Source: an uncultured cyanobacterium (GTDB lineage: Bacteria; Cyanobacteriota; Cyanobacteriia; Cyanobacteriales; CAWCAG01). Taken from it: a stretch of DNA of 64,000 nucleotides. How positions within the stretch are numbered: the first letter of the stretch is position 1; every line of letters starts with the position of its first letter. The translations under genes and the position numbers were made by a program. The stretch is from positions 960,001 through 1,024,000 of the forward strand of contig CAWDOD010000002.1 in the NCBI GenBank assembly GCA_963803805.1, in the 5' to 3' direction. Shown piece by piece: positions 1,850 through 43,917 of this stretch. Below the pieces are notes generated by a model. The model was not told the origin of the DNA. It worked only from the letters and a program-made list of their open reading frames with translations, and made no database searches.

Positions 1850-2260
1850 ATGGCTATTTCCACTAGTGCTATTCTGCTCTACTCTATTGTCGGGGCAGTA
1901 GTTTTGATTTATCTTCCTTTCTTGGTAGTAGGTTATGCTCGTACCCAAGTAGGATATGATATGCAAGCTCCTAGAACTATGCTAGAAAAGTTACCTGACT
2001 ATGCAAAAAGAGCAAACTGGGCGCACCAAAATTCTTTTGAGACTTTTATGGTGTTCGCTGCGGCGGCTTTCATGGCTTATGTAACAGGAGTTGATTCTCC
2101 TTTAGCGATAGGAGCAGGAATTGCTTTTTTAGGAGCGAGATTTTTATATTCGCTTTTTTATATTTTCAATATTCCTTTGGCGCGATCGCTAATGTTTGGT
2201 ATTGGTTCTTTTTGTACAACAACTCTTTTTGTCTTGAGTTTGCTAGCAATTAATTCCTAA
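1850..2260 (+). CDS. MAPEG family membrane protein
   Basis: RANWAHQNSFE motif, hydrophobic helices. Confidence 0.85.
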   Translation: MAISTSAILLYSIVGAVVLIYLPFLVVGYARTQVGYDMQAPRTMLEKLPDYAKRANWAHQNSFETFMVFAAAAFMAYVTGVDSPLAIGAGIAFLGARFLYSLFYIFNIPLARSLMFGIGSFCTTTLFVLSLLAINS

Positions 2261-2285
2261 CTTTTAATTTTTTTAATTAACCACT

Positions 2286-2777
2286 ATGGCTTCCAACTCT
2301 TCTTTTGATATTGTCAGCGATTTTGATCAGCAAGAAATGGTTAATACAGTAGATCAAACTAATCGAGAAATAATTAATCGCTATGACCTCAAGGATACGA
2401 AAACAACTGTGGAGTTGGAGGATGATACTATTAAAATCAATACTGAAAGTGATTTCACTTTAGAGGCGGTTAATTCAATTTTGCGTACAAAGGCTGCTAA
2501 ACGTAAGTTATCTCAGAAAATCTTTGATTTTGGCAAAGTAGAATCTGCTGGTGGCGGGCGCGTTAGACAAGAAATTAAGTTGCAAAGAGGTTTAACTCAA
2601 GAACTTGCCAAGAAAATTAGTAAGTTAATTCGGGATAATTATAAGAAGGTACAAGCTTCTATTCAAGGAGATAGTGTTCGGGTTTCTAGCAAGTCAAAAG
2701 ATAGTTTACAAGAAGTGATGCAGTTATTGAAGCAGGAAGATTTTCCTGTGGAATTACAATTTACTAATTACCGCTAG
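2286..2777 (+). CDS. yajQ: YajQ family nucleotide-binding protein
   Basis: SFDIVS...NRYDLKDT...[14 protein letters not shown]...LQFTNYR. Confidence 0.93.
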
Positions 2778-2805
2778 GTAATCATTGATCATTAAAAAGT
2801 TTATT

Positions 2806-3886
2806 TCAAGGCCGCATAATAATAGTTAAATCCTCTCCGAACATTGCCTCAAGTAAATCTTCAAGTTCTTCTGGAACAACTGGGGAAGCAGAAACAGGTC
2901 CTTGTAGGAAGTCTTTAATAGTAATCTTGCGATCGCGAAAATCTTGAACAAAATCACGAACTTCTTCAAGGATATCAATCTCCATTTGACCCTCTTCGAG
3001 GGTATTGCTAATTATATCTATACCCTCTCGCTTGGCGCTACGATAGGCTTTTACCATTTGACCTTCGGGAGTATTCTTAACTTGATTTAGTTCTGTTTTA
3101 AGCTGTTCAAGTTGTTCATTGAGTAACTCGATTTCTTTTTCTAACTGTATTTCTTGTCTTTCTTGTTCATTTTGAGCAGAAGCGCGAAAAGCTTGTTTGT
3201 TACTCTGACGTTCAATTTCTAATAACCTTGCATAATCACCATTTTTGTAGGCAAGATTAATTTCTTTCATTACCTCTGTATGATGATTTCTTGTTTCTTC
3301 ATCAGCAACTTTATCAGGATGAAATTTATCTGCTAACTTTAAGAAAAGCTTTCTCAAATCTTTAGAAGCGCGTCCTTTAACTTCTGCACCAGGTTCTTCA
3401 AAAAACTCCTTTTGTCCCCCAAAAAAGTTTCTAGGATTCTGAAGAATCAAAATTTTCTCCTTCTGGCTCAAAATCAAACCCATCCCCCCTTTCCTGTCCC
3501 TCTGATGGGTCAAGGCGGGAAGAAATTCGTCCTGTCAACTGAAGGGTTTTATATACTTCTTCAATCTGCTTTTTTGAGCGCTTACCAAAGCTACGTTTAG
3601 TTATAATCTCATCGAACAAATTGTGAATTTCTTCATCAAGTTTGAAAATTTGCTCATATAAAGAACTACTTTTCGACACCATTTCCATGGCAACTTCCCT
3701 TACTTGCCCAGTTAAGTTAGCCAATTCCGTTCTTCTACGCTTAACTTGGGTAAGAAGCTTTTTATGTTGTTGCTGAAGAAACTCTAGTCGTCCACTGAGG
3801 GATGCAAAGGAAAGTGTTGACTCATTAGCAGTGGGGGAAACCGTAGATGTAGTTTTGGAGGGGGCTTTTCTTTTCCTTCTGGCCAT
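2806..3886 (-). pseudogene. Coiled-coil J-domain (DnaJ-like) protein split by a frameshift near 3435-3445 (real or sequencing error)
   Basis: Two overlapping ORFs (3431-3886, 2806-3513); downstream part has the J-domain motif FHPDK; coding character continues across the shift. Confidence 0.7.
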
Positions 3887-3994: not shown

Positions 3995-4069
3995 AAAAGA
4001 AAAGGCTTCTGGGAGTCTGGCCGTGTTTCGACCCCAAAAGCCTTTTCTTTAATTTTTGCTCCTCACACA
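3995..4069 (-). ncRNA. yfr2: Yfr2-family sRNA
   Basis: Minus strand starts TGTGTGAGGAG (complement of the Yfr1 CTCCTCACAC motif), then hairpin AAAGAAAAGGCTTTTGGGGTC-GAAACACGGCCA-GACTCCCAGAAGCCTTTTCTTT with the Yfr2-type GAAACACGG loop. Confidence 0.8.
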
Positions 4070-4182
4070 ATCATAACTTATACTTTTCTTGCCTATTTAT
4101 CTAGGGGAGTAGTGACACTTTTCAAACTGACACTCACCTCTAATTGATAGTTGATAATTACCTCTCCTTGTCTCCCCCTGTT

Positions 4183-18489: not shown

Positions 18490-18589
18490 GAATATAAGTT
18501 AAAAGTTAAAAGTTGTTGGTGGAAGGCGATTTTATCTAGTTTGGTAAACTCTTCCGGATCTGAACCCAAAAGCGAAGTAATAAAGAAGT

Positions 18590-18640
18590 GGTAGATGCAC
18601 CCTGGTTAAGCTCTGGAGTTTTCACTTCAGAGCTTTTTTT
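18590..18640 (+). ncRNA. NsiR1-like sRNA, copy 1
   Basis: TCCGGA 18553-18558 (-35 position), GTAATA -10, GGTAGATGCACC 5' end, terminator AAGCTCTGGAG/CTTCAGAGCTT + T run. Confidence 0.6.
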
Positions 18641-18738
18641 GTTACTAATTATTCCTCTAATTTCCTAAAGTTAAATAAGAAAAAGAAATATCTGATTACT
18701 TTCCGGATCTGAACCCAAAAGCGAAGTAATAAAGAAGT

Positions 18739-18790
18739 GGTAGATGCACCCTGGTTAAGCTCTGGAGTTTTCACTCCCAGAGCTTTTTTT
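18739..18790 (+). ncRNA. NsiR1-like sRNA, copy 2
   Basis: TCCGGA 18702-18707, same 5' end, terminator hairpin + T7. Confidence 0.6.
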
Positions 18791-18888
18791 GTTGCTAATT
18801 ATTCCTCTAATTTCCTAAAGTTAAATAAGAAAAAGAAATATCTGATTACTTTCCGGATCTGAACCCAAAAGCGAAGTAATAAAGAAGT

Positions 18889-18939
18889 GGTAGATGCACC
18901 CTGGTTAAGCTCTGGAGCGAAAACTCCAGAGCTTTTTTT
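18889..18939 (+). ncRNA. NsiR1-like sRNA, copy 3
   Basis: TCCGGA 18852-18857, same 5' end, perfect hairpin AAGCTCTGGAG-CGAAAA-CTCCAGAGCTT + T run. Confidence 0.6.
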
Positions 18940-18973
18940 GGTTTTGGGAATTATTTAAAATTGAGCGATCGCC

Positions 18974-31701: not shown

Positions 31702-32283
31702 ATGGCTCTAATTCGTATGTTGGTGTTGCTGGTAGTCTTTGGGGGAGGGACTGTTTTTGTCTTGCAGAACTTCTCTCCAGCTTTGCCTTTAGTGGTTTTT
31801 GGCAGTCAAACTTTAACTTTGCCAGTGGGATTATGGCTATTGCTTTTTTTATTGGCTGGGGCTTTAACTGGACTTTTCTTACAAATAATTAATTATAGCC
31901 CCAGGCCATCACCAAAAGATTATCGGGAAAGAAAAGTTACTGTTTCCCCTCCCCCTCCTCCACAAAGTGGGAACTACAAAAGAGAAAGACAAAGAGAAGC
32001 AGAAACAACCTCAAATGCAAGTTCTTATCCCTCTGTTGAACCTGACCAAACAATTACATCTCCACCTATCAATAATCAACCAGAAACGAAGCAAGACAAA
32101 GAAGATGTTGAACTAAAATTTCCTTCAAACAATTCCTTCGACTCGGTTGATGTTCCCCCTCAAGACAAGACTAACTCTCCTAAAGTAGATAAAATTCATG
32201 ACGCTAACTATCGCGTTATTGAACCCCCTACCAGCCCCAATGGAGAGGTGGGAAAAGATGATGATGATGAAGAATGGATTTAA
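31702..32283 (+). CDS. LapA-like membrane protein with disordered tail
   Basis: VFVLQN...LPVGLWLL two-TM N-terminus. Confidence 0.65.
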   Translation: MALIRMLVLLVVFGGGTVFVLQNFSPALPLVVFGSQTLTLPVGLWLLLFLLAGALTGLFLQIINYSPRPSPKDYRERKVTVSPPPPPQSGNYKRERQREAETTSNASSYPSVEPDQTITSPPINNQPETKQDKEDVELKFPSNNSFDSVDVPPQDKTNSPKVDKIHDANYRVIEPPTSPNGEVGKDDDDEEWI

Positions 32284-34991: not shown

Positions 34992-36140
34992 TCAATTATC
35001 AATTATCAATTCCTTCTCATACATACGATACTTTTTATATAAATAACTACCGCTAGCTTCAATTATTTTACGAGAAGGAAAATTGTCTTCCCAAACCCAA
35101 GATGAATCTGTTCGTTTGTAAGGCTTCCCTTTTTTTATGCCCCCCTGCAAAGACAAATACATCAAAGCTAGAGGAATTAGCTTACGACGATGTTCTGGTA
35201 AAGAACAAATAACAATTACCCTCGCTTGATCAATTTGACGACGATACCAAAGAAACTTGAGAATACCAAGCCAATTGAGCTTGCCATTAACTTGTTTGAG
35301 GGGAATATTATAATCTGGTATAGCCATGAGAAAACCTACCATTTCCCCTTCATATTCAGCGATTGGAAAAATATCCGGGTCTATTAACGGTTGTAACTCC
35401 TTTGCTTCTTCAAAAAACTCTTCCTCGCTACGGGGGGTAGAACTCCAGTTATCAGCAAAAGTTTTAGTGAATAATTGATAGATACTACGGCAATCCTGTT
35501 CAAATTCTGCCCCTTTGGTATGAACAGGGCGGAAGTTTACACCTGACTTACAAGCAATGCGATAAGACTTAACGTACTTTTCCGGTACGAACTTTTCTAA
35601 AGGCATATCATAAGCATAAGCATCTTTAGCTTTGTGCAAACCAGCTTGTTCAAAAAACTGGGGGTAATAGGTAGGATTGTAAGCTGTCATGATTACAGGA
35701 GGAGAATCAAACCCTTCAATTAAACATAAACAGTTATTGTGGGTAGATAAGTCAATTGGCCCCCTGAGTAGGTTTATATTGCGATCGCGCAACCATTGGG
35801 AAGCAGCATCTAATAACCCTTGGGCAATAGAAAAGTCTTCAATACATTCAAAGTAACCAAATAAACCAATTGATTCACCTGTTTTTTCAATTAATCTGTT
35901 ATTAATGGCAGCAACAATTCTGCCGATAGGTTTTCCCTCCGTTAGGGCAATAAACTGTTGAAACTTGCCATACTCCAAAAAAGGATTGCTAACTGATAAA
36001 GCTAACTGCTTGGCAATACTGCTACGAATAGGAGGAACCCAGTTAGGGTCATTTGCATATACCCTAGCTGGTACGTCCAAAAACATTTCCCTGTCTGCTG
36101 GGTTGACAACAGCTTTAATTTTGAAATTTGTTTCGCTCAT
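34992..36140 (-). CDS. GNAT-fold N-acyltransferase, YghO / bacterial ceramide synthase (bCerS)-like
   Basis: VYANDPNWVPP, GRIVAAIN, FGYFECIED, GP, EGFDSPP..M..YNP.YY, PDYN, SWVWEDN motifs. Confidence 0.75.
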   Translation of the reverse strand: MSETNFKIKAVVNPADREMFLDVPARVYANDPNWVPPIRSSIAKQLALSVSNPFLEYGKFQQFIALTEGKPIGRIVAAINNRLIEKTGESIGLFGYFECIEDFSIAQGLLDAASQWLRDRNINLLRGPIDLSTHNNCLCLIEGFDSPPVIMTAYNPTYYPQFFEQAGLHKAKDAYAYDMPLEKFVPEKYVKSYRIACKSGVNFRPVHTKGAEFEQDCRSIYQLFTKTFADNWSSTPRSEEEFFEEAKELQPLIDPDIFPIAEYEGEMVGFLMAIPDYNIPLKQVNGKLNWLGILKFLWYRRQIDQARVIVICSLPEHRRKLIPLALMYLSLQGGIKKGKPYKRTDSSWVWEDNFPSRKIIEASGSYLYKKYRMYEKELIIDN

Positions 36141-36156
36141 CCTGGACTTTATTTAA

Positions 36157-37542
36157 TTAAGCACTGATTGTTCTAGCTGTTGGTTTATACAAAGCCTCTC
36201 TGGTGGCGATTAAAGCTTCTACCAAACGATCCATTTCTTCTTGGGTATGGAGGGCATTAGCGGTGATCCGGAGGCGAGGCTTGGCAATAAACCAAATGGG
36301 AGATACCCAAATACCATGTTTTTCCATGAGATGGGTGGCAAATTCTTTGGGATTTAATTCTTCTGGCAGGAGGACAGGAATCACATTAGTTTCTCCGATG
36401 GCCGCAAAATCATTTTCCAACAGATGAGATCGCAAGTAACGGGTATTTTCTTGGAGAGTAGCTACAAGTTGGGGTTGGGAACGAACTTGGCGAATACTTG
36501 CTAAAGCTGCTGCTGTTGTGGGTGGTGGCAAGGAAATAGTACCAATGGAAGTAGGGCAAACATCTAACAAATCGATTAATTCACTAACATGACTGCTAAT
36601 AGCTGCCCCCGCCGAAGCTGCAAACTTAGAAAAAGTTGTCATAATCAAAGGCACTACCCCTTTGTCAATAACCTGTTGGGGCAAGATACCAAAATGTTCA
36701 TAAATGCCCCTTCCCGTAGCGCCAATTGCCCCACTAGCATGGGCCTCATCCATGACAATCACACTACCAGGATAATCCGCTAAAACCTCAATCATCTCTG
36801 GTAAAGGGGCAATATCTCCATCCATAGAAAATACCGCATCAGAAACCACCAAAATACGATCATCAGGACGGGCATAGCGACGCAGTTTTCGGGCTAAATC
36901 CTGAACATCACAATGGCGATAGGGCTTAACCCTCACCCTGGGGCTATGACCATAAACCTTACCCGAACGAGTTCCGGCATTAACCACAGCAGAAAGGATA
37001 CAACCGTGGTTAAGGACATCGGTAAGAATCAAAGTTTCGCGGGTATGTTTAAAACCAGGAACCCTAGCAGCTAGGTGGCAAAATCCATCCATCAATGCTT
37101 GCATAGCCATCCAAGCATTGAGAAACAGGTGGGTATGGGGTAAATGCTTAAAATCAGAAATTTCTTGTTCTAGCTGTCTGTGGAGGTCAATGCGACCGCT
37201 CAATACAGAACAAGAACTATTGGAAGTGCCGTATTGATAAATAGCATCAATGGCTGCTTGCTTCACAGATTCTGATTGTACTAAACCCAGAACATCATTA
37301 GTACAAAAGGTCAAAACCGTCCTTAATTTACCGCTCTTATCTTCTTCAATTTCAACTAAATTACCTTTCTTGTGATGGCAGATAAATTTATCGGGATAAA
37401 GTCCACTTTCATGGAGGCCTTGCATATAATCTTTGACAACTTGCACTTCTTCTACTCCTGGTGACCTTTTCCTAAATAACCTTTTGGCTCTGCTTGTAAT
37501 GATGCTGTGCGCTCTAGCACCTAATGTCTCCTCTACATCCAA
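36157..37542 (-). CDS. PLP-dependent alpha-oxoamine synthase (SPT/BioF/KBL family); start may be GTG at 37446
   Basis: TNDVLGL, LNHGCI, FSMDGD, DEAHA, TFSK (PLP lysine), RLRIT. Confidence 0.85.
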   Translation of the reverse strand: MDVEETLGARAHSIITSRAKRLFRKRSPGVEEVQVVKDYMQGLHESGLYPDKFICHHKKGNLVEIEEDKSGKLRTVLTFCTNDVLGLVQSESVKQAAIDAIYQYGTSNSSCSVLSGRIDLHRQLEQEISDFKHLPHTHLFLNAWMAMQALMDGFCHLAARVPGFKHTRETLILTDVLNHGCILSAVVNAGTRSGKVYGHSPRVRVKPYRHCDVQDLARKLRRYARPDDRILVVSDAVFSMDGDIAPLPEMIEVLADYPGSVIVMDEAHASGAIGATGRGIYEHFGILPQQVIDKGVVPLIMTTFSKFAASAGAAISSHVSELIDLLDVCPTSIGTISLPPPTTAAALASIRQVRSQPQLVATLQENTRYLRSHLLENDFAAIGETNVIPVLLPEELNPKEFATHLMEKHGIWVSPIWFIAKPRLRITANALHTQEEMDRLVEALIATREALYKPTARTISA

Positions 37543-37605
37543 GAACTAAATAATGACTATCTTTAATGACTGATTTGCCCAAGAGCAAGTTTCAAAGCAT
37601 TATAC

Positions 37606-38718
37606 TCAGTTTAAAGATACCGAGTCATTGGCATTCTTATTAAGATTAGGAGACGATTGACTAGATTGTTGCACAAATTTTTCATATTGCCGGATAATTA
37701 GTCGCTGAAGAGCAATAATAGCAGGATTTATTTCCACATATTTTCTCTGAGGATTAGCAAGATAGTTTTTTTGTTCGCTTTCAATCATGGCAATATCTTG
37801 AAGCAGGAATTTTTTGAGTAAAAAGCGCCAAATAAATTTACTGAGTAAGGGTTTGCATTTAGCGATTAACCACTGAGGTAAGGGTAATTTCAAGAACAAT
37901 AGGGAAAAGGAACGGGTTTCTTGTGGCCCCACAGGTAAACGCATTAAATACATCGAAGAAACCCCTTCTAAGGAACTGTAGTAGTGGGGATAACGATAAC
38001 GGATAGAGATATTTTTAGTTGTGACTTGATTGGCTTGGCTACTAAGTCCAAGAATCTTGGATAGAAAGCCCCGATAAGAAATTTGATAATCCGCTTGCAG
38101 TTCCCCTGAACTTTGCTGCAAATTAAGTAAAACCGGATCGAACCAGCCTTGTATATCCTGATGCAAGAAACCATGGAAAACATCCATCGTATTTTCATTA
38201 CAGATGGAAAAATGGGCTTGAAAATGAGCTGGTATAGGAATGGCAATTAATTGAGGATCACTATACTCTGGTACTTCTGGGGGCTGAGATTGGGCTGCTA
38301 AAGTAGGTTCTCCAGGAAAAACCCAAATTATGCCATATTGATCTAAAGTTGGATAGCTACGGGCTTGGGCGCAGGGCAATTTTTGTTCTGGGGGTAAATA
38401 AGGGATTTTTACACATTTACCATCTTCGCCAAATTCCCAACCGTGATAGGGGCAAACAAGATTGTCACCATGTACAGCACCATTATGAAGGGCTACACCT
38501 TTATGGGGACAAGCATCTGCCAAAGCGTGAACTTTTTTATTCTGGTCACGATAAACAGCGATCGCCTCTTGCCAAATTACAACACGGAGAATTTTCCCTG
38601 CTTTAATTTCATGGCTCCAAGCTACAGGATACCAATGGTTAGGGTCTATCCCAACTTCTCTAATTCTCTGAATTTGAACATTCTGGCTTTGTAAGGTGGG
38701 AGCCAGTTTCATGCGCAA
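37606..38718 (-). CDS. Rieske non-heme iron oxygenase
   Basis: CPHKG...CPYHGW Rieske motif; ENTMDVFHGFLH mononuclear Fe motif; C-terminal QD. Confidence 0.92.
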   Translation of the reverse strand: MRMKLAPTLQSQNVQIQRIREVGIDPNHWYPVAWSHEIKAGKILRVVIWQEAIAVYRDQNKKVHALADACPHKGVALHNGAVHGDNLVCPYHGWEFGEDGKCVKIPYLPPEQKLPCAQARSYPTLDQYGIIWVFPGEPTLAAQSQPPEVPEYSDPQLIAIPIPAHFQAHFSICNENTMDVFHGFLHQDIQGWFDPVLLNLQQSSGELQADYQISYRGFLSKILGLSSQANQVTTKNISIRYRYPHYYSSLEGVSSMYLMRLPVGPQETRSFSLLFLKLPLPQWLIAKCKPLLSKFIWRFLLKKFLLQDIAMIESEQKNYLANPQRKYVEINPAIIALQRLIIRQYEKFVQQSSQSSPNLNKNANDSVSLN

Positions 38719-39049
38719 CTCCTATCTTCAATAATAATTTAGTGACAATCTATTTAGAGTCGCATAATACCAGACTGGGCAACTATAGTAGCCCATAAGT
38801 TTAGGCCCGCATCAATGCAATAACTGTCACAAATATAGCGAAAAGTAGAAAAATAGCGCTTTTACTAGGGGATAAATGTCGCATTTAAAGCTGATATCAA
38901 GCTTAATACCTCCTAGAGAGCAACTATGATTTCAACTTTTCGCGCCAAGATGTTGTTTATTTGTCATATTGATTTGTGGTGCAGTAACCTCTTAAGACAA
39001 CTTTTGAGCATTTTTTCTGTATAGCAGTTTATTTTTTTAGAATCTTATA

Positions 39050-40225
39050 ATGTTAAGCGATCGCAAAATCATGGGGCAGGAAAACTTAAGACTGCCTTTA
39101 GTTCTGCTGGCTGGTTCGTTGATTACTATGGCAGGAGGAGTTTTAGCGCCAATCTTACCAGAGTTGGCACAACAGTTAAATCTCAACCCCGTTTTAGTAG
39201 GAAATTTAGTTAGTATTCATTGTTTAACCCTAGCTTTATTTTGTTTGCCCTTGGGGATATTAACGGATCAACTCAGCCCTTCTAAAGTATTAATTCCTTC
39301 TCTTGCTCTCTATAGTATTTTCGGCTGTGCAGGTGCTTTGATGACAGACTTTTGGCCTTTACTGGCTACAAGGGCTTTATTAGGTGCTGCTAGCGGCGGT
39401 ATTGCAGCAGCCAGTTTGGGTTGGTTGGGGCAAGAATATGAAGGGGAAGAACGTTCCCAGGCTATTGGTTATGCTACAGCAACTTTAACTATCGCTGGCA
39501 TTATTTGCCCTTTACTAGGGGGTTGGTTAGGCTCTTGGAACTGGCGATGGGCTTTTTGTTTATATGGAGTAGGTTTACCCCTAGCTTTTCTTACTGCTTG
39601 GATTATTGCACCTAGTGAATCCCGCAGCCGTGGCAAAGCCCACGCTGTACCTGATCTTGATAAAACTTTCAGAAAGCTATTGCGTCATCGGGCTTTTTGG
39701 CGACTCTTAGTAAGTTTAGGGATGGCTTCTTTGGTTATGTATGCTGTATTTATTTATTTACCTCTTTACCTCAAACAAACCAGCAATACTACCCCGACTT
39801 TAAATGGCTTGTTGCTAGCTTGTGAATCCCTTGGTGCAGCCCTAATCTCAGCTTTTGGTGTTCAACCCCTTGCTCAAAAAATTGGTCGCGATCGCTCTAC
39901 AGCTATAGGTTTTACCCTCATGGCAGGAATGTTAGCAATTATTCCCCTATTTCAAGATTATGTTGCTCTACTTTTTGTCGCGATCTTTTTTGGGATCGGG
40001 CTGGGGTTAGTTATTCCCAACACCTACAATACCCTAGCTAATTTAGCACCACAAAAACTACAAGGAAGTATTCTCGCCACAGGAACTGGAGCTAGCTTTC
40101 TGGGGCAATTTCTTAGTCCCATCCTCTTAGGGCCAATTCTTGGTATTGGGGATATAACCTGGGTTTTTTATACTGCTGCGGCTGTAGCTTTGACTGGAGG
40201 ATGTATTTTATTCTACAAGACCTAA
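39050..40225 (+). CDS. MFS transporter
   Basis: About 12 TMs, GILTDQLS, RALLG, WRWAF. Confidence 0.88.
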   Translation: MLSDRKIMGQENLRLPLVLLAGSLITMAGGVLAPILPELAQQLNLNPVLVGNLVSIHCLTLALFCLPLGILTDQLSPSKVLIPSLALYSIFGCAGALMTDFWPLLATRALLGAASGGIAAASLGWLGQEYEGEERSQAIGYATATLTIAGIICPLLGGWLGSWNWRWAFCLYGVGLPLAFLTAWIIAPSESRSRGKAHAVPDLDKTFRKLLRHRAFWRLLVSLGMASLVMYAVFIYLPLYLKQTSNTTPTLNGLLLACESLGAALISAFGVQPLAQKIGRDRSTAIGFTLMAGMLAIIPLFQDYVALLFVAIFFGIGLGLVIPNTYNTLANLAPQKLQGSILATGTGASFLGQFLSPILLGPILGIGDITWVFYTAAAVALTGGCILFYKT

Positions 40226-42965: not shown

Positions 42966-43917
42966 ATGGGAAGTTACAAGCGGATCAAAAAGCCTAGTTT
43001 TCAACCATCTAAAGTTTCACAAAATCCCAATCTACAACAAAAGCGTGAGCTATAGCCACCACAGCAACAACCAAAGGGGCAAACCCTAGAAGAGATGGAC
43101 ATTGCCAGGAAAAATGCTGAACGTCTGGGCGACCATATGTTTGATTTTTCTTCAACCCCTTCTCCAGGAGTCCAAGCGAAATTAAATGTAGGGGAAGTTG
43201 GGGATAAGTATGAACAAGAAGCGGATTCTGTCGCTGGTCAAGTAGTAGAAGAGATTAACTCTCCCCAAGGACAAGTTGAGCCAAATGTCATGCGCCAATG
43301 TTATGCTTGTGAGGGAGAAAAGGAGGAATCTTCAACTTCTTTGCAGCGTCAAGGAGACGAATTATCAAATCACAGTGCAAGAGCAACACAAGATGTTTTT
43401 GTTCGTCAGGGAGCTTATGCGTCTCAAGGTAGGCAAGTACAAAAGAAGCCAGCTAATAGCCAAAACCAAAACTCTAAGCAAAGCAGTGTATGGGAAGAGG
43501 CAGGAGGCGCTTTTTGGGGGGTTATCTGGTGGTTCGGTGCAACCTACATTGTCAATCCTACTGCTGAGTATATTGGCGATGTTTTAAGGATTGAGGAAAA
43601 TCAGGATAAAGCTCCTCAAAATCCTGACGTTGTATCTTAAGTCTTATGCCTATGAATGCACTCCTCAAGGCTTTGATCCAGATACCTGGAAGACTCTTAA
43701 CGACATGATTAGTTTGTTGAGAAAAGGCAACTCAAAAACAGTTATGAGAATAATAGAAGCTCTCAGCAATGTACCAACAGGGCAGGAGGGTTTACGCAAA
43801 CTTCATAGTCTTATATCATCCCTGACTGGGTGTGATAATTTCACAGGCGAGGAAGAAAATGCTCAACAGCTCAGTGAGCTGGCTACACTTTTAAGAATGA
43901 TCGGACCTTTCTTATAG
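42966..43917 (+). pseudogene. Decayed DUF4157 (eCIS core)-type effector gene
   Basis: ATG 42966, in-frame TAG 43053-43055, QAKLNVGEVGDKYEQEADSVA motif, collapsed DUF4157 (ARATQDVFVRQGAY, no HELTH); possible C-terminus in overlapping ORF 43591-43917. Confidence 0.65.

Follow-up and report, generated by a model that had tools for sequence, protein, structure and literature searches.

Candidate genes of a dispersed pathway for a ceramide-like lipid in a cyanobacterial genome

We analysed a stretch of 64,000 nucleotides from a 5.3-Mb cyanobacterial genome (C2:960001-1024000; henceforth the window), and focused on a cluster of four genes that may form part of a pathway for a ceramide-like lipid. 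The cluster encodes a Rieske oxygenase, an alpha-oxoamine synthase (AOS) dependent on pyridoxal phosphate (PLP), an N-acyltransferase of the GNAT type and a divergently transcribed transporter of the major facilitator superfamily (MFS). In window coordinates, its features are the following:

34992..36140, minus strand: YghO/bCerS-type tandem-GNAT N-acyltransferase, 382 aa, with full-length homology to a Sphingomonas protein
36157..37446, minus strand: PLP-dependent AOS, divergent in sequence, 429 aa from the GTG at 37446; PF00155
37606..38712, minus strand: Rieske non-heme-iron oxygenase, 368 aa from the ATG at 38712; PF00355
38713..39049, no strand assigned: divergent intergenic region between the Rieske and MFS genes, 337 bp, presumed to be a shared promoter region
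39050..40225, plus strand: DHA1-type MFS transporter, divergent, 391 aa; MFS_1 178.8 bits

A listing of open reading frames (ORFs) confirmed the four ORFs, their strands, the divergent MFS gene and the distance of 16 bp from the AOS stop to the GNAT start, all of which had been noted earlier from the nucleotide sequence without database searches (the sequence-only reading). The description of the three minus-strand genes as tightly packed holds for AOS and GNAT, but not for Rieske and AOS, which lie 159 bp apart when the AOS start is taken at 37446. The longest ORFs reach 37542 (AOS) and 38718 (Rieske). However, the GTG at 37446, preceded by GGAG 9 nt upstream, is the probable start codon of the AOS, since all seven translated orthologues begin at the corresponding point; for the Rieske gene, the most likely start is the ATG at 38712, which has a GGAG 7 nt ahead of it. 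The cluster is flanked by housekeeping genes (UreF, S4 and AroK on one side; a CYP38-like peptidyl-prolyl isomerase and ThiL on the other), and the module is therefore a four-gene island. The grouping of these genes is not due to chance, as it recurs in many genomes.

Among the proteins of the cluster, the GNAT is by homology the sole clear member of a ceramide-pathway family. Its Pfam signal is weak (PF00583, 23.5 bits), and we found no NCBIfam match and no sequence match in the PDB. Nevertheless, BLASTP aligned it with the N-acetyltransferase of a Sphingomonas cluster at 28% identity (E 1e-52; residues 5-379 against 2-383), and tblastn bore out its earlier description as YghO-like, with E. 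coli yghO matching at 28.6% identity over 97% of the query (E 2e-44). The gene is present in a single copy in the genome and is the only match there for both the Sphingomonas and the E. coli YghO queries. A tblastn search of a plasmid collection returned 45 records, including E. coli yghO and Sphingomonas parapaucimobilis. In the latter, the GNAT homologue is found together with an NAD(P)H-binding protein, an acyl carrier protein (ACP), an AOS, lptF, lptG and a fatty-acid desaturase, and the AOS of that cluster scores 833 bits on NF047603, the alphaproteobacterial model of serine palmitoyltransferase (SPT; cut-off 670). The intact form of E. coli yghO (NZ_MG591698.1) adjoins an acyl-AMP ligase, an epimerase-family protein, an ACP and an AOS which passes NF047599, the betaproteobacterial SPT model (600 against a cut-off of 500). 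Records from Rubrobacter and Streptomyces carry genes for an AOS, a GNAT and a short-chain dehydrogenase/reductase (SDR) in the order seen in cyanobacteria. The layout of the Sphingomonas and E. coli clusters matches the Caulobacter map described in PMC11324152, which comprises aasR, cerR, acpR, spt, second copies of lptF/lptG, and cerS (CC_1154); the link between our GNAT and Caulobacter bCerS (CC_1154, UniProt A0A0H3C8X0) is drawn via the synteny of lptF, lptG and the N-acetyltransferase gene in Sphingomonas with this published map. These comparisons place the GNAT in the YghO/bCerS-type family known from genuine SPT clusters, and we propose that it N-acylates a long-chain base.

The structure and family membership of the GNAT were also considered. 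An AlphaFold (AF2) model built on an alignment of 58 sequences (pLDDT 94, pTM 0.91) has a tandem-GNAT fold, and its nearest solved structures are the tandem GNAT of the clavulanate pathway, MAB_4324 and MshD. Matches in the ESM Atlas were confined to GNAT-family clusters (Cyanobacteriota, Planctomycetota and Thermodesulfobacteriota), and an exhaustive HMMER search collected 6713 representative proteins at E <= 0.001, with 990 of them at E <= 1e-30. Some of the representatives are natural AOS-GNAT fusions of about 780 aa, namely P0173 (780 aa), P0201 (777 aa) and P0198; the AOS halves of the first two score best on an SPT model (470 and 539 bits, respectively). Two further representatives (P0158 and P0183) carry a PilZ domain N-terminal to a YghO-type GNAT, which hints at cyclic di-GMP control of this family in some bacteria.

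The distribution of the module was assessed in two samples. A pattern scan with one genome per species, in which orthologues at each locus were called by tblastn at a minimum of 45% identity, returned 55 loci. In 54 of these, all cyanobacterial or from unclassified metagenome-assembled genomes (MAGs), the GNAT is 59-70% identical to the one described here; the last, L058 from a Bacillota MAG, has a GNAT with 35% identity and no match to the AOS, Rieske or MFS proteins at E <= 1e-10 within 8 kb. The flanks of the 54 loci hold an SDR in 37 cases, an AOS in 30, a Rieske oxygenase in 17, and an MFS transporter and a fatty-acid hydroxylase in 14 each, all of these counts being lower bounds (many contigs end within the flank). 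The second sample comprised 201 evenly sampled cyanobacterial genomes, 177 of them of high quality, from 96 genera. Orthologues of AOS (72-80% identity), GNAT (58-71%) and SDR (62-73%) were found in the same 16 genomes, belonging to 13 of the 96 genera. Because AOS and GNAT occur in the same genomes, we consider the two to be functionally linked; their genes are adjacent in 13 of the 16 carriers, and GNAT and SDR lie within 1 kb of each other in 7. The fatty-acid hydroxylase orthologue (66-77%) was present in 15 carriers and in none of the 185 other genomes, five of which have homologues at 48-55% identity, and the Rieske orthologue (57-63%) was present in 11 carriers, always beside the AOS, and again in none of the 185 others. 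Carrier genomes are related to one another, so these counts overstate independence; the pattern spans at least nine families.

Cultured carriers include Baaleninema simplex PCC 7105 and Mastigocoleus testarum BC008. The largest module was found in Rivularia sp. MS3 (L026, 1-10919), where genes for a partial MFS transporter, a CMAS-type methyltransferase, a fatty-acid desaturase, the Rieske oxygenase, AOS, GNAT, SDR and the fatty-acid hydroxylase are assembled in a stretch of 11 kb. At two other loci (L030 and L031), a B12 radical-SAM/DUF4070 gene lies between the MFS and Rieske genes. These lipid-type tailoring enzymes, encoded at related loci, suggest that the product is a long-chain lipid. 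We rejected a heterocyst-specific role, given that the module is also found in Geitlerinema, Coleofasciculus, Microcoleus, Prochloron and Halothece loci. In three of the 54 loci (L014, L020 and L039), a gene of the GH3 family (acyl-acid amido synthetase-like) lies within the flanks, 1.7-6 kb upstream of the module, and at L039 this gene (2194-3876) is beside the MFS gene; no such gene was detected in the present genome at E <= 1e-20.

The sequence-only reading had found no ACP gene and no CerR-type reductase in the cluster, and had suggested that the product may stay oxidised. The first of these observations holds, and the second holds for the window but not for the genome. In many loci, the GNAT gene is followed immediately by a gene for a reductase of the NAD-dependent epimerase/3beta-HSD family, the two often overlapping at the stop and start codons, and a 67% identical orthologue of this SDR is encoded here at C3:229400-230356, unlinked to the cluster in the window (PF01370 147.9 bits, 3Beta_HSD 118.7 bits; extended-SDR/epimerase family). 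Given this orthologue, and the co-occurrence of the SDR with AOS and GNAT in the same 16 of 201 genomes, the reductase is unlinked rather than absent, and the suggestion of a product left oxidised for want of a reductase falls away. The genome also contains an orthologue of the small PF04116 fatty-acid hydroxylase (C2:589180-589674; 72-76% identity).

The remaining two proteins of the cluster would act on the product or move it. The Rieske protein was identified by PF00355 (88.1 bits) and VanA_C (23.8 bits), and its motifs CPHKG and CPYHGW as well as the iron motif NENTMDVFHGFLH are conserved in six orthologues. A paralogue with 35-41% identity occurs in 40 other sampled cyanobacterial genomes, none of which has the orthologue itself, and is widespread in cyanobacteria without the AOS/GNAT module; it is also present here at C3:592622-593656, where it keeps the Rieske and iron motifs. 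We propose that the Rieske oxygenase of the cluster is an accessory tailoring enzyme of the module. This type of oxygenase is not known from sphingolipid metabolism. Orthologues of the MFS transporter (47-66% identity) were found at the 45% threshold in 14 of the 17 loci with a Rieske gene, or in 15 if a partial copy lying at a contig end is counted. In 10 loci the MFS gene is directly divergent from the Rieske gene, and in 4 it is separated from it by inserted genes and lies 1.6-3.2 kb upstream. We regard this transporter as a candidate exporter or flippase of the product.

Based on gene content, the homology of the GNAT to acyltransferases of SPT clusters and the strict co-occurrence across genomes, we propose that the window holds one part of a cyanobacterial pathway which is dispersed over the genome and makes a ceramide-like lipid, i.e., an N-acylated long-chain amino alcohol, with a probability which we put at roughly 0.65. 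Every step of the pathway is inferred. The cluster would represent a variant of the bacterial Spt-bCerS-CerR pathway, and its putative product is possibly new. In the first step, the AOS would carry out a decarboxylative Claisen condensation of an amino acid, with serine as the default guess, and a long-chain acyl thioester, yielding a 3-keto long-chain base. The acyl donor would probably be acyl-ACP, because the clusters contain no dedicated ACP or ligase; cyanobacteria are described as recycling fatty acids via acyl-ACP synthetase, and the thioester preference of Spt as variable, in PMC9386255 and PMC11324152. The YghO/bCerS-type tandem GNAT would then N-acylate the amine, and the unlinked extended SDR on C3 would reduce the ketone, an order of steps which follows the Caulobacter model as outlined in PMC11087976. 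The di-iron fatty-acid hydroxylase at C2:589180-589674, together with the Rieske oxygenase, may hydroxylate or desaturate the lipid, and the MFS transporter may finally flip or export it. This agrees in outline with the pathway put forward in the sequence-only reading, except for the absent reductase and the SPT-like label of the synthase. A more far-reaching claim would be that about one in twelve of the sampled cyanobacteria, from several orders, make a new class of sphingolipid-like membrane lipid by means of a neofunctionalised AOS (perhaps one using an amino acid other than serine), mostly tailored by the Rieske oxygenase and translocated by the MFS transporter; we consider this possible and offer it tentatively.

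A number of results weigh against the proposed pathway, most of them concerning the synthase. The AOS is recognised by PF00155 (Aminotran_1_2; 114.7 bits) and its best NCBIfam matches are all of AOS type, but it falls under every NCBIfam cut-off: it scored 229.3 bits on bioF (TIGR00858; cut-off 426.45), 196 on KBL (460) and 172 on ALAS (339), and failed the CqsA model too. On the SPT models it reached about 175 bits (174.9-175.6) for NF047600, 161.8 for NF047599 and 118.1 for NF047603, against cut-offs of 640, 500 and 670, respectively. By contrast, a genuine BioF encoded elsewhere in the genome, on contig C11 (465.2 bits on TIGR00858), scored 342.9 bits on NF047600, the SPT CFB model, and thus above the AOS of the cluster; similarly, proteobacterial SPT queries matched this BioF with E values of 1e-37 to 2e-56 and the cluster AOS with E values of 7e-9 to 5e-25. 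If 'SPT-like' is understood as family membership, the label is not supported. The motifs on which it had drawn (NHG, SMDGD, DEAH and TFSK) all occur in the translation, where they line up with those of the PLP site in reference AOS, so that the PLP residues are retained (the Lys of TFSK, the stacking His of NHG, DEAH, SMDGD and the C-terminal Arg of R-L-R-I-T); these residues are, however, common to the whole AOS superfamily and not specific to SPT.

The alignment further revealed three clade-specific insertions in the AOS, of about 11, 12 and 7 residues, and a change in the loop before the conserved Arg, which in SPT binds the amino-acid substrate. In all four aligned cyanobacterial sequences this loop reads IWFIAKP and is shortened by four residues; the PPxTP-type loop (P-x-x-x-P/x-G), found in 11 of 11 reference AOS, is absent from the cyanobacterial ones, which makes the use of serine by this enzyme uncertain. 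A phylogeny of the synthase had been suggested earlier as a check. In quick maximum-likelihood trees, eight cyanobacterial AOS grouped closely together at the end of a very long stem branch. When actinobacterial and fused forms were added (second tree, 24 rows), the eight reference AOS from other phyla that are linked to YghO-type GNATs, either by their gene clusters or by fusion, formed a clade with SH-aLRT 98 which excludes the cyanobacterial AOS. The approximately unbiased (AU) test allows the cyanobacterial AOS to be joined either to this GNAT-linked clade (p 0.37) or to BioF (p 0.29), rejecting neither. The nearest AOS found was that of the Rubrobacter operon (31% identity, E 3e-51).

Other parts of the module also depart from the proteobacterial pathway. 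The SDR is 21% identical to the SPT-cluster SDR of E. coli (E 1e-12) and 28% identical to that of Roseomonas (E 7e-12), and both of these match another SDR of the genome (C2:1440143-1440913) better than they match the SDR orthologue; the SDR is closer to that of the Streptomyces operon (32%, E 2e-26). By these matches it is not the reciprocal best match of the SPT-cluster reductases, and orthology with CerR is not indicated. No AcpR- or AasR-type genes were found in the 55 loci, and the FAAL-like genes of the genome are unlinked. The MFS transporter, whose nearest solved relative is NorA (E 7e-13), resembles drug-efflux pumps and would suit a soluble product as well.

The model scores also bear on an alternative in which the AOS is a housekeeping enzyme of BioF or KBL type with unrelated neighbours. 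The best single NCBIfam score of the AOS is indeed that of bioF, but since it amounts to 229 bits while a separate gene passes TIGR00858, we take the AOS not to be BioF. The sequence-only reading had come to the same view from the absence of neighbouring bio genes, which is a weak argument. Moreover, the AOS co-occurs exactly with GNAT and SDR and is missing from 185 of the 201 genomes, unlike a housekeeping gene. In view of the bioF score and the separate BioF, this alternative is excluded for practical purposes.

Several of the same results could instead be explained by a small soluble product: AOS, GNAT and SDR would make an N-acyl amino-ketone or amino-alcohol, acting as an antimetabolite or signal, which the Rieske oxygenase would tailor and the MFS transporter export. 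Such a layout would parallel that of the alaremycin cluster, with its AOS, N-acetyltransferase, oxidoreductase and MFS transporter. The position of the AOS outside the SPT-like clade with an altered substrate loop, the affinity of the transporter to NorA-type drug/H+ antiporters, the patchy distribution (16 of 201 genomes) and the lack of a dedicated ACP or acyl-AMP ligase in the loci would all be in keeping with it. On the other hand, all GNAT relatives of known context lie beside an AOS and an SDR, in two proteobacterial SPT clusters with an ACP, or an ACP and an acyl-AMP ligase, added, and in two actinobacterial cases as three-gene operons. The co-occurrence of a membrane di-iron fatty-acid hydroxylase in 15 of the 16 carriers, and the fatty-acid desaturase and CMAS-type methyltransferase which join the cluster in some loci, likewise speak for a lipid, and an AOS identity of 72-83% across orders is very high for a gene of secondary metabolism. 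We therefore consider a soluble metabolite unlikely.

A different lipid product was suggested by the model scores of the two oxidoreductases. The best NCBIfam model for the Rieske oxygenase is SdmA, the 4beta-methylsterol monooxygenase (NF052579; 218.1 bits), and the SDR scores 200 bits on HpnA and 137 bits on SdmB, so that the two could be an SdmA/SdmB- or HpnA-like pair acting on a triterpenoid (sterol or hopanoid), with AOS and GNAT decorating the scaffold. However, all of these values fall far short of the respective thresholds (600 for SdmA, 368 for HpnA and 600 for SdmB), and the loci scanned showed neither a cyclase nor a hopanoid gene. HpnA is the top family, always below its cut-off, for the cyanobacterial SDR and for four cluster-context reductases, followed by OleD- and SdmB-type models for the cyanobacterial, E. 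coli and Roseomonas enzymes. Because the SDRs of proteobacterial SPT clusters give the same ranking, it reflects a subgroup resembling 3-oxo-lipid reductases and not triterpenoid specificity. Finally, since the SDR follows AOS and GNAT across genomes (16 of 16) and not the Rieske oxygenase, which is missing from 5 of the 16, we judge a role in triterpenoid metabolism to be very improbable.

Returning to the ceramide-like pathway, we compared the module with known systems. The Spt-bCerS-CerR system of Caulobacter crescentus (CC_1162/CC_1154/CC_1164) and Sphingomonas likewise consists of an AOS, a YghO-type GNAT of about 380 aa and an extended SDR, often clustered, according to PMC11324152 and PMC11087976. 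The cyanobacterial module differs in that, by the tests applied, its AOS is not orthologous to Spt, nor its SDR to CerR; it has no AcpR, AasR or second LptF/G, adds the Rieske oxygenase and the MFS transporter, and in this genome is spread over three separate sites. The E. coli yghO locus is similar in placing its YghO beside an SPT-type AOS and an epimerase-family reductase, but it is of the proteobacterial type, with ACP, ligase and lptF/lptG, and with an AOS that passes an SPT model. The nearest non-cyanobacterial relatives are two actinobacterial operons, on plasmid 1 of Rubrobacter radiotolerans and on a plasmid of Streptomyces sp. NBC_01001, in which AOS, GNAT and SDR genes overlap or abut in the same order (GNAT 32% identity; AOS 31%, E 3e-51; SDR 32%, E 2e-26). 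Unlike the cyanobacterial AOS, that of the actinobacterial operons falls into the SPT-like clade and reaches 377-444 bits on the SPT CFB model (the cyanobacterial AOS about 176), and these operons have no Rieske or MFS partner. We know of no characterised product of these actinobacterial operons. Lastly, SdmA and SdmB (NF052579/NF052578), which catalyse sterol C-4 demethylation, both act on hydrophobic lipids; SdmA is the best model for the Rieske oxygenase (positions 17-353 of 370) and SdmB comes second after HpnA for the SDR, but the scores are about a third of the cut-offs or less, and the Rieske and SDR genes are distributed differently across genomes.

The usual view is that cyanobacteria make only glycerolipids. 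We found no description of the module in the full-text literature, a search whose coverage did not extend to Stankeviciute et al. 2022 (PMC8891067) or the supplements of PMC11334938. A study of Nostoc punctiforme (PMC8895605) gives BioF as the only candidate gene and reports no sphingolipids; it also mentions earlier reports of ceramides from Scytonema julianum and Moorea producens, leaves open whether second AOS genes make long-chain bases in other cyanobacteria, and urges that this be tested. Spt-like genes have been extended to 40 phyla, with no discussion of Cyanobacteria in the main text of PMC11334938. The module offers a concrete, testable candidate for a cyanobacterial sphingolipid-like lipid and, if the proposal is true, a genetic basis for the scattered old reports of cyanobacterial ceramides. 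Confirmation would mean a further lipid class in cyanobacteria that form mats, crusts and symbioses, with consequences for lipid biomarkers, and would provide enzymology with a divergent AOS and a Rieske lipid oxygenase. Cyanobacterial hCERK-like enzymes have been remarked on in 10.1101/2023.05.01.538943; the genome contains two copies of DAGK_cat lipid kinases, which are also present in the Synechococcus elongatus control and are hence uninformative.

We also searched the cluster for regulatory signals. The 337-bp region between the Rieske and MFS genes contains no ORF and no Rfam match, and no riboswitch or other RNA family was detected by Rfam in or near the cluster. Within this region, CTAAATAGATTGTCAC is found at 38757-38742 on the minus strand, and is close to CTAAATATTGTCA, a sequence common to 5 of 10 related Rieske-MFS intergenic regions (L037, L042, L043, L044 and L046), the first nine bases of which also occur in a sixth (L039). 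Three Baaleninema/Geitlerinema loci have an NtcA-like GTA-N8-TAC site instead. As these loci are related to one another, the conservation of CTAAATATTGTCA is weak evidence for a regulatory site. Between 34700 and 40500, promoter-like sites were not above chance (15 observed; 13.5 +/- 3.4 expected), and terminator-like sites (4 observed; 6.0 +/- 2.4 expected) were uninformative.

Elsewhere in the window, two ORFs of 193 and 181 aa (31702-32283 and 43095-43640, both on the plus strand) had no Pfam or NCBIfam match, and a single copy of Cyano-1 RNA was found at 3996-4072 on the minus strand. The nitrogen-stress small RNA NsiR1 is present in three tandem copies on the plus strand (18589-18641, 18738-18791 and 18888-18940; 44-47 bits against a gathering score of 39). 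Arrays of NsiR1 are typical of heterocyst-forming cyanobacteria, and the three copies point to a heterocyst-forming lineage.

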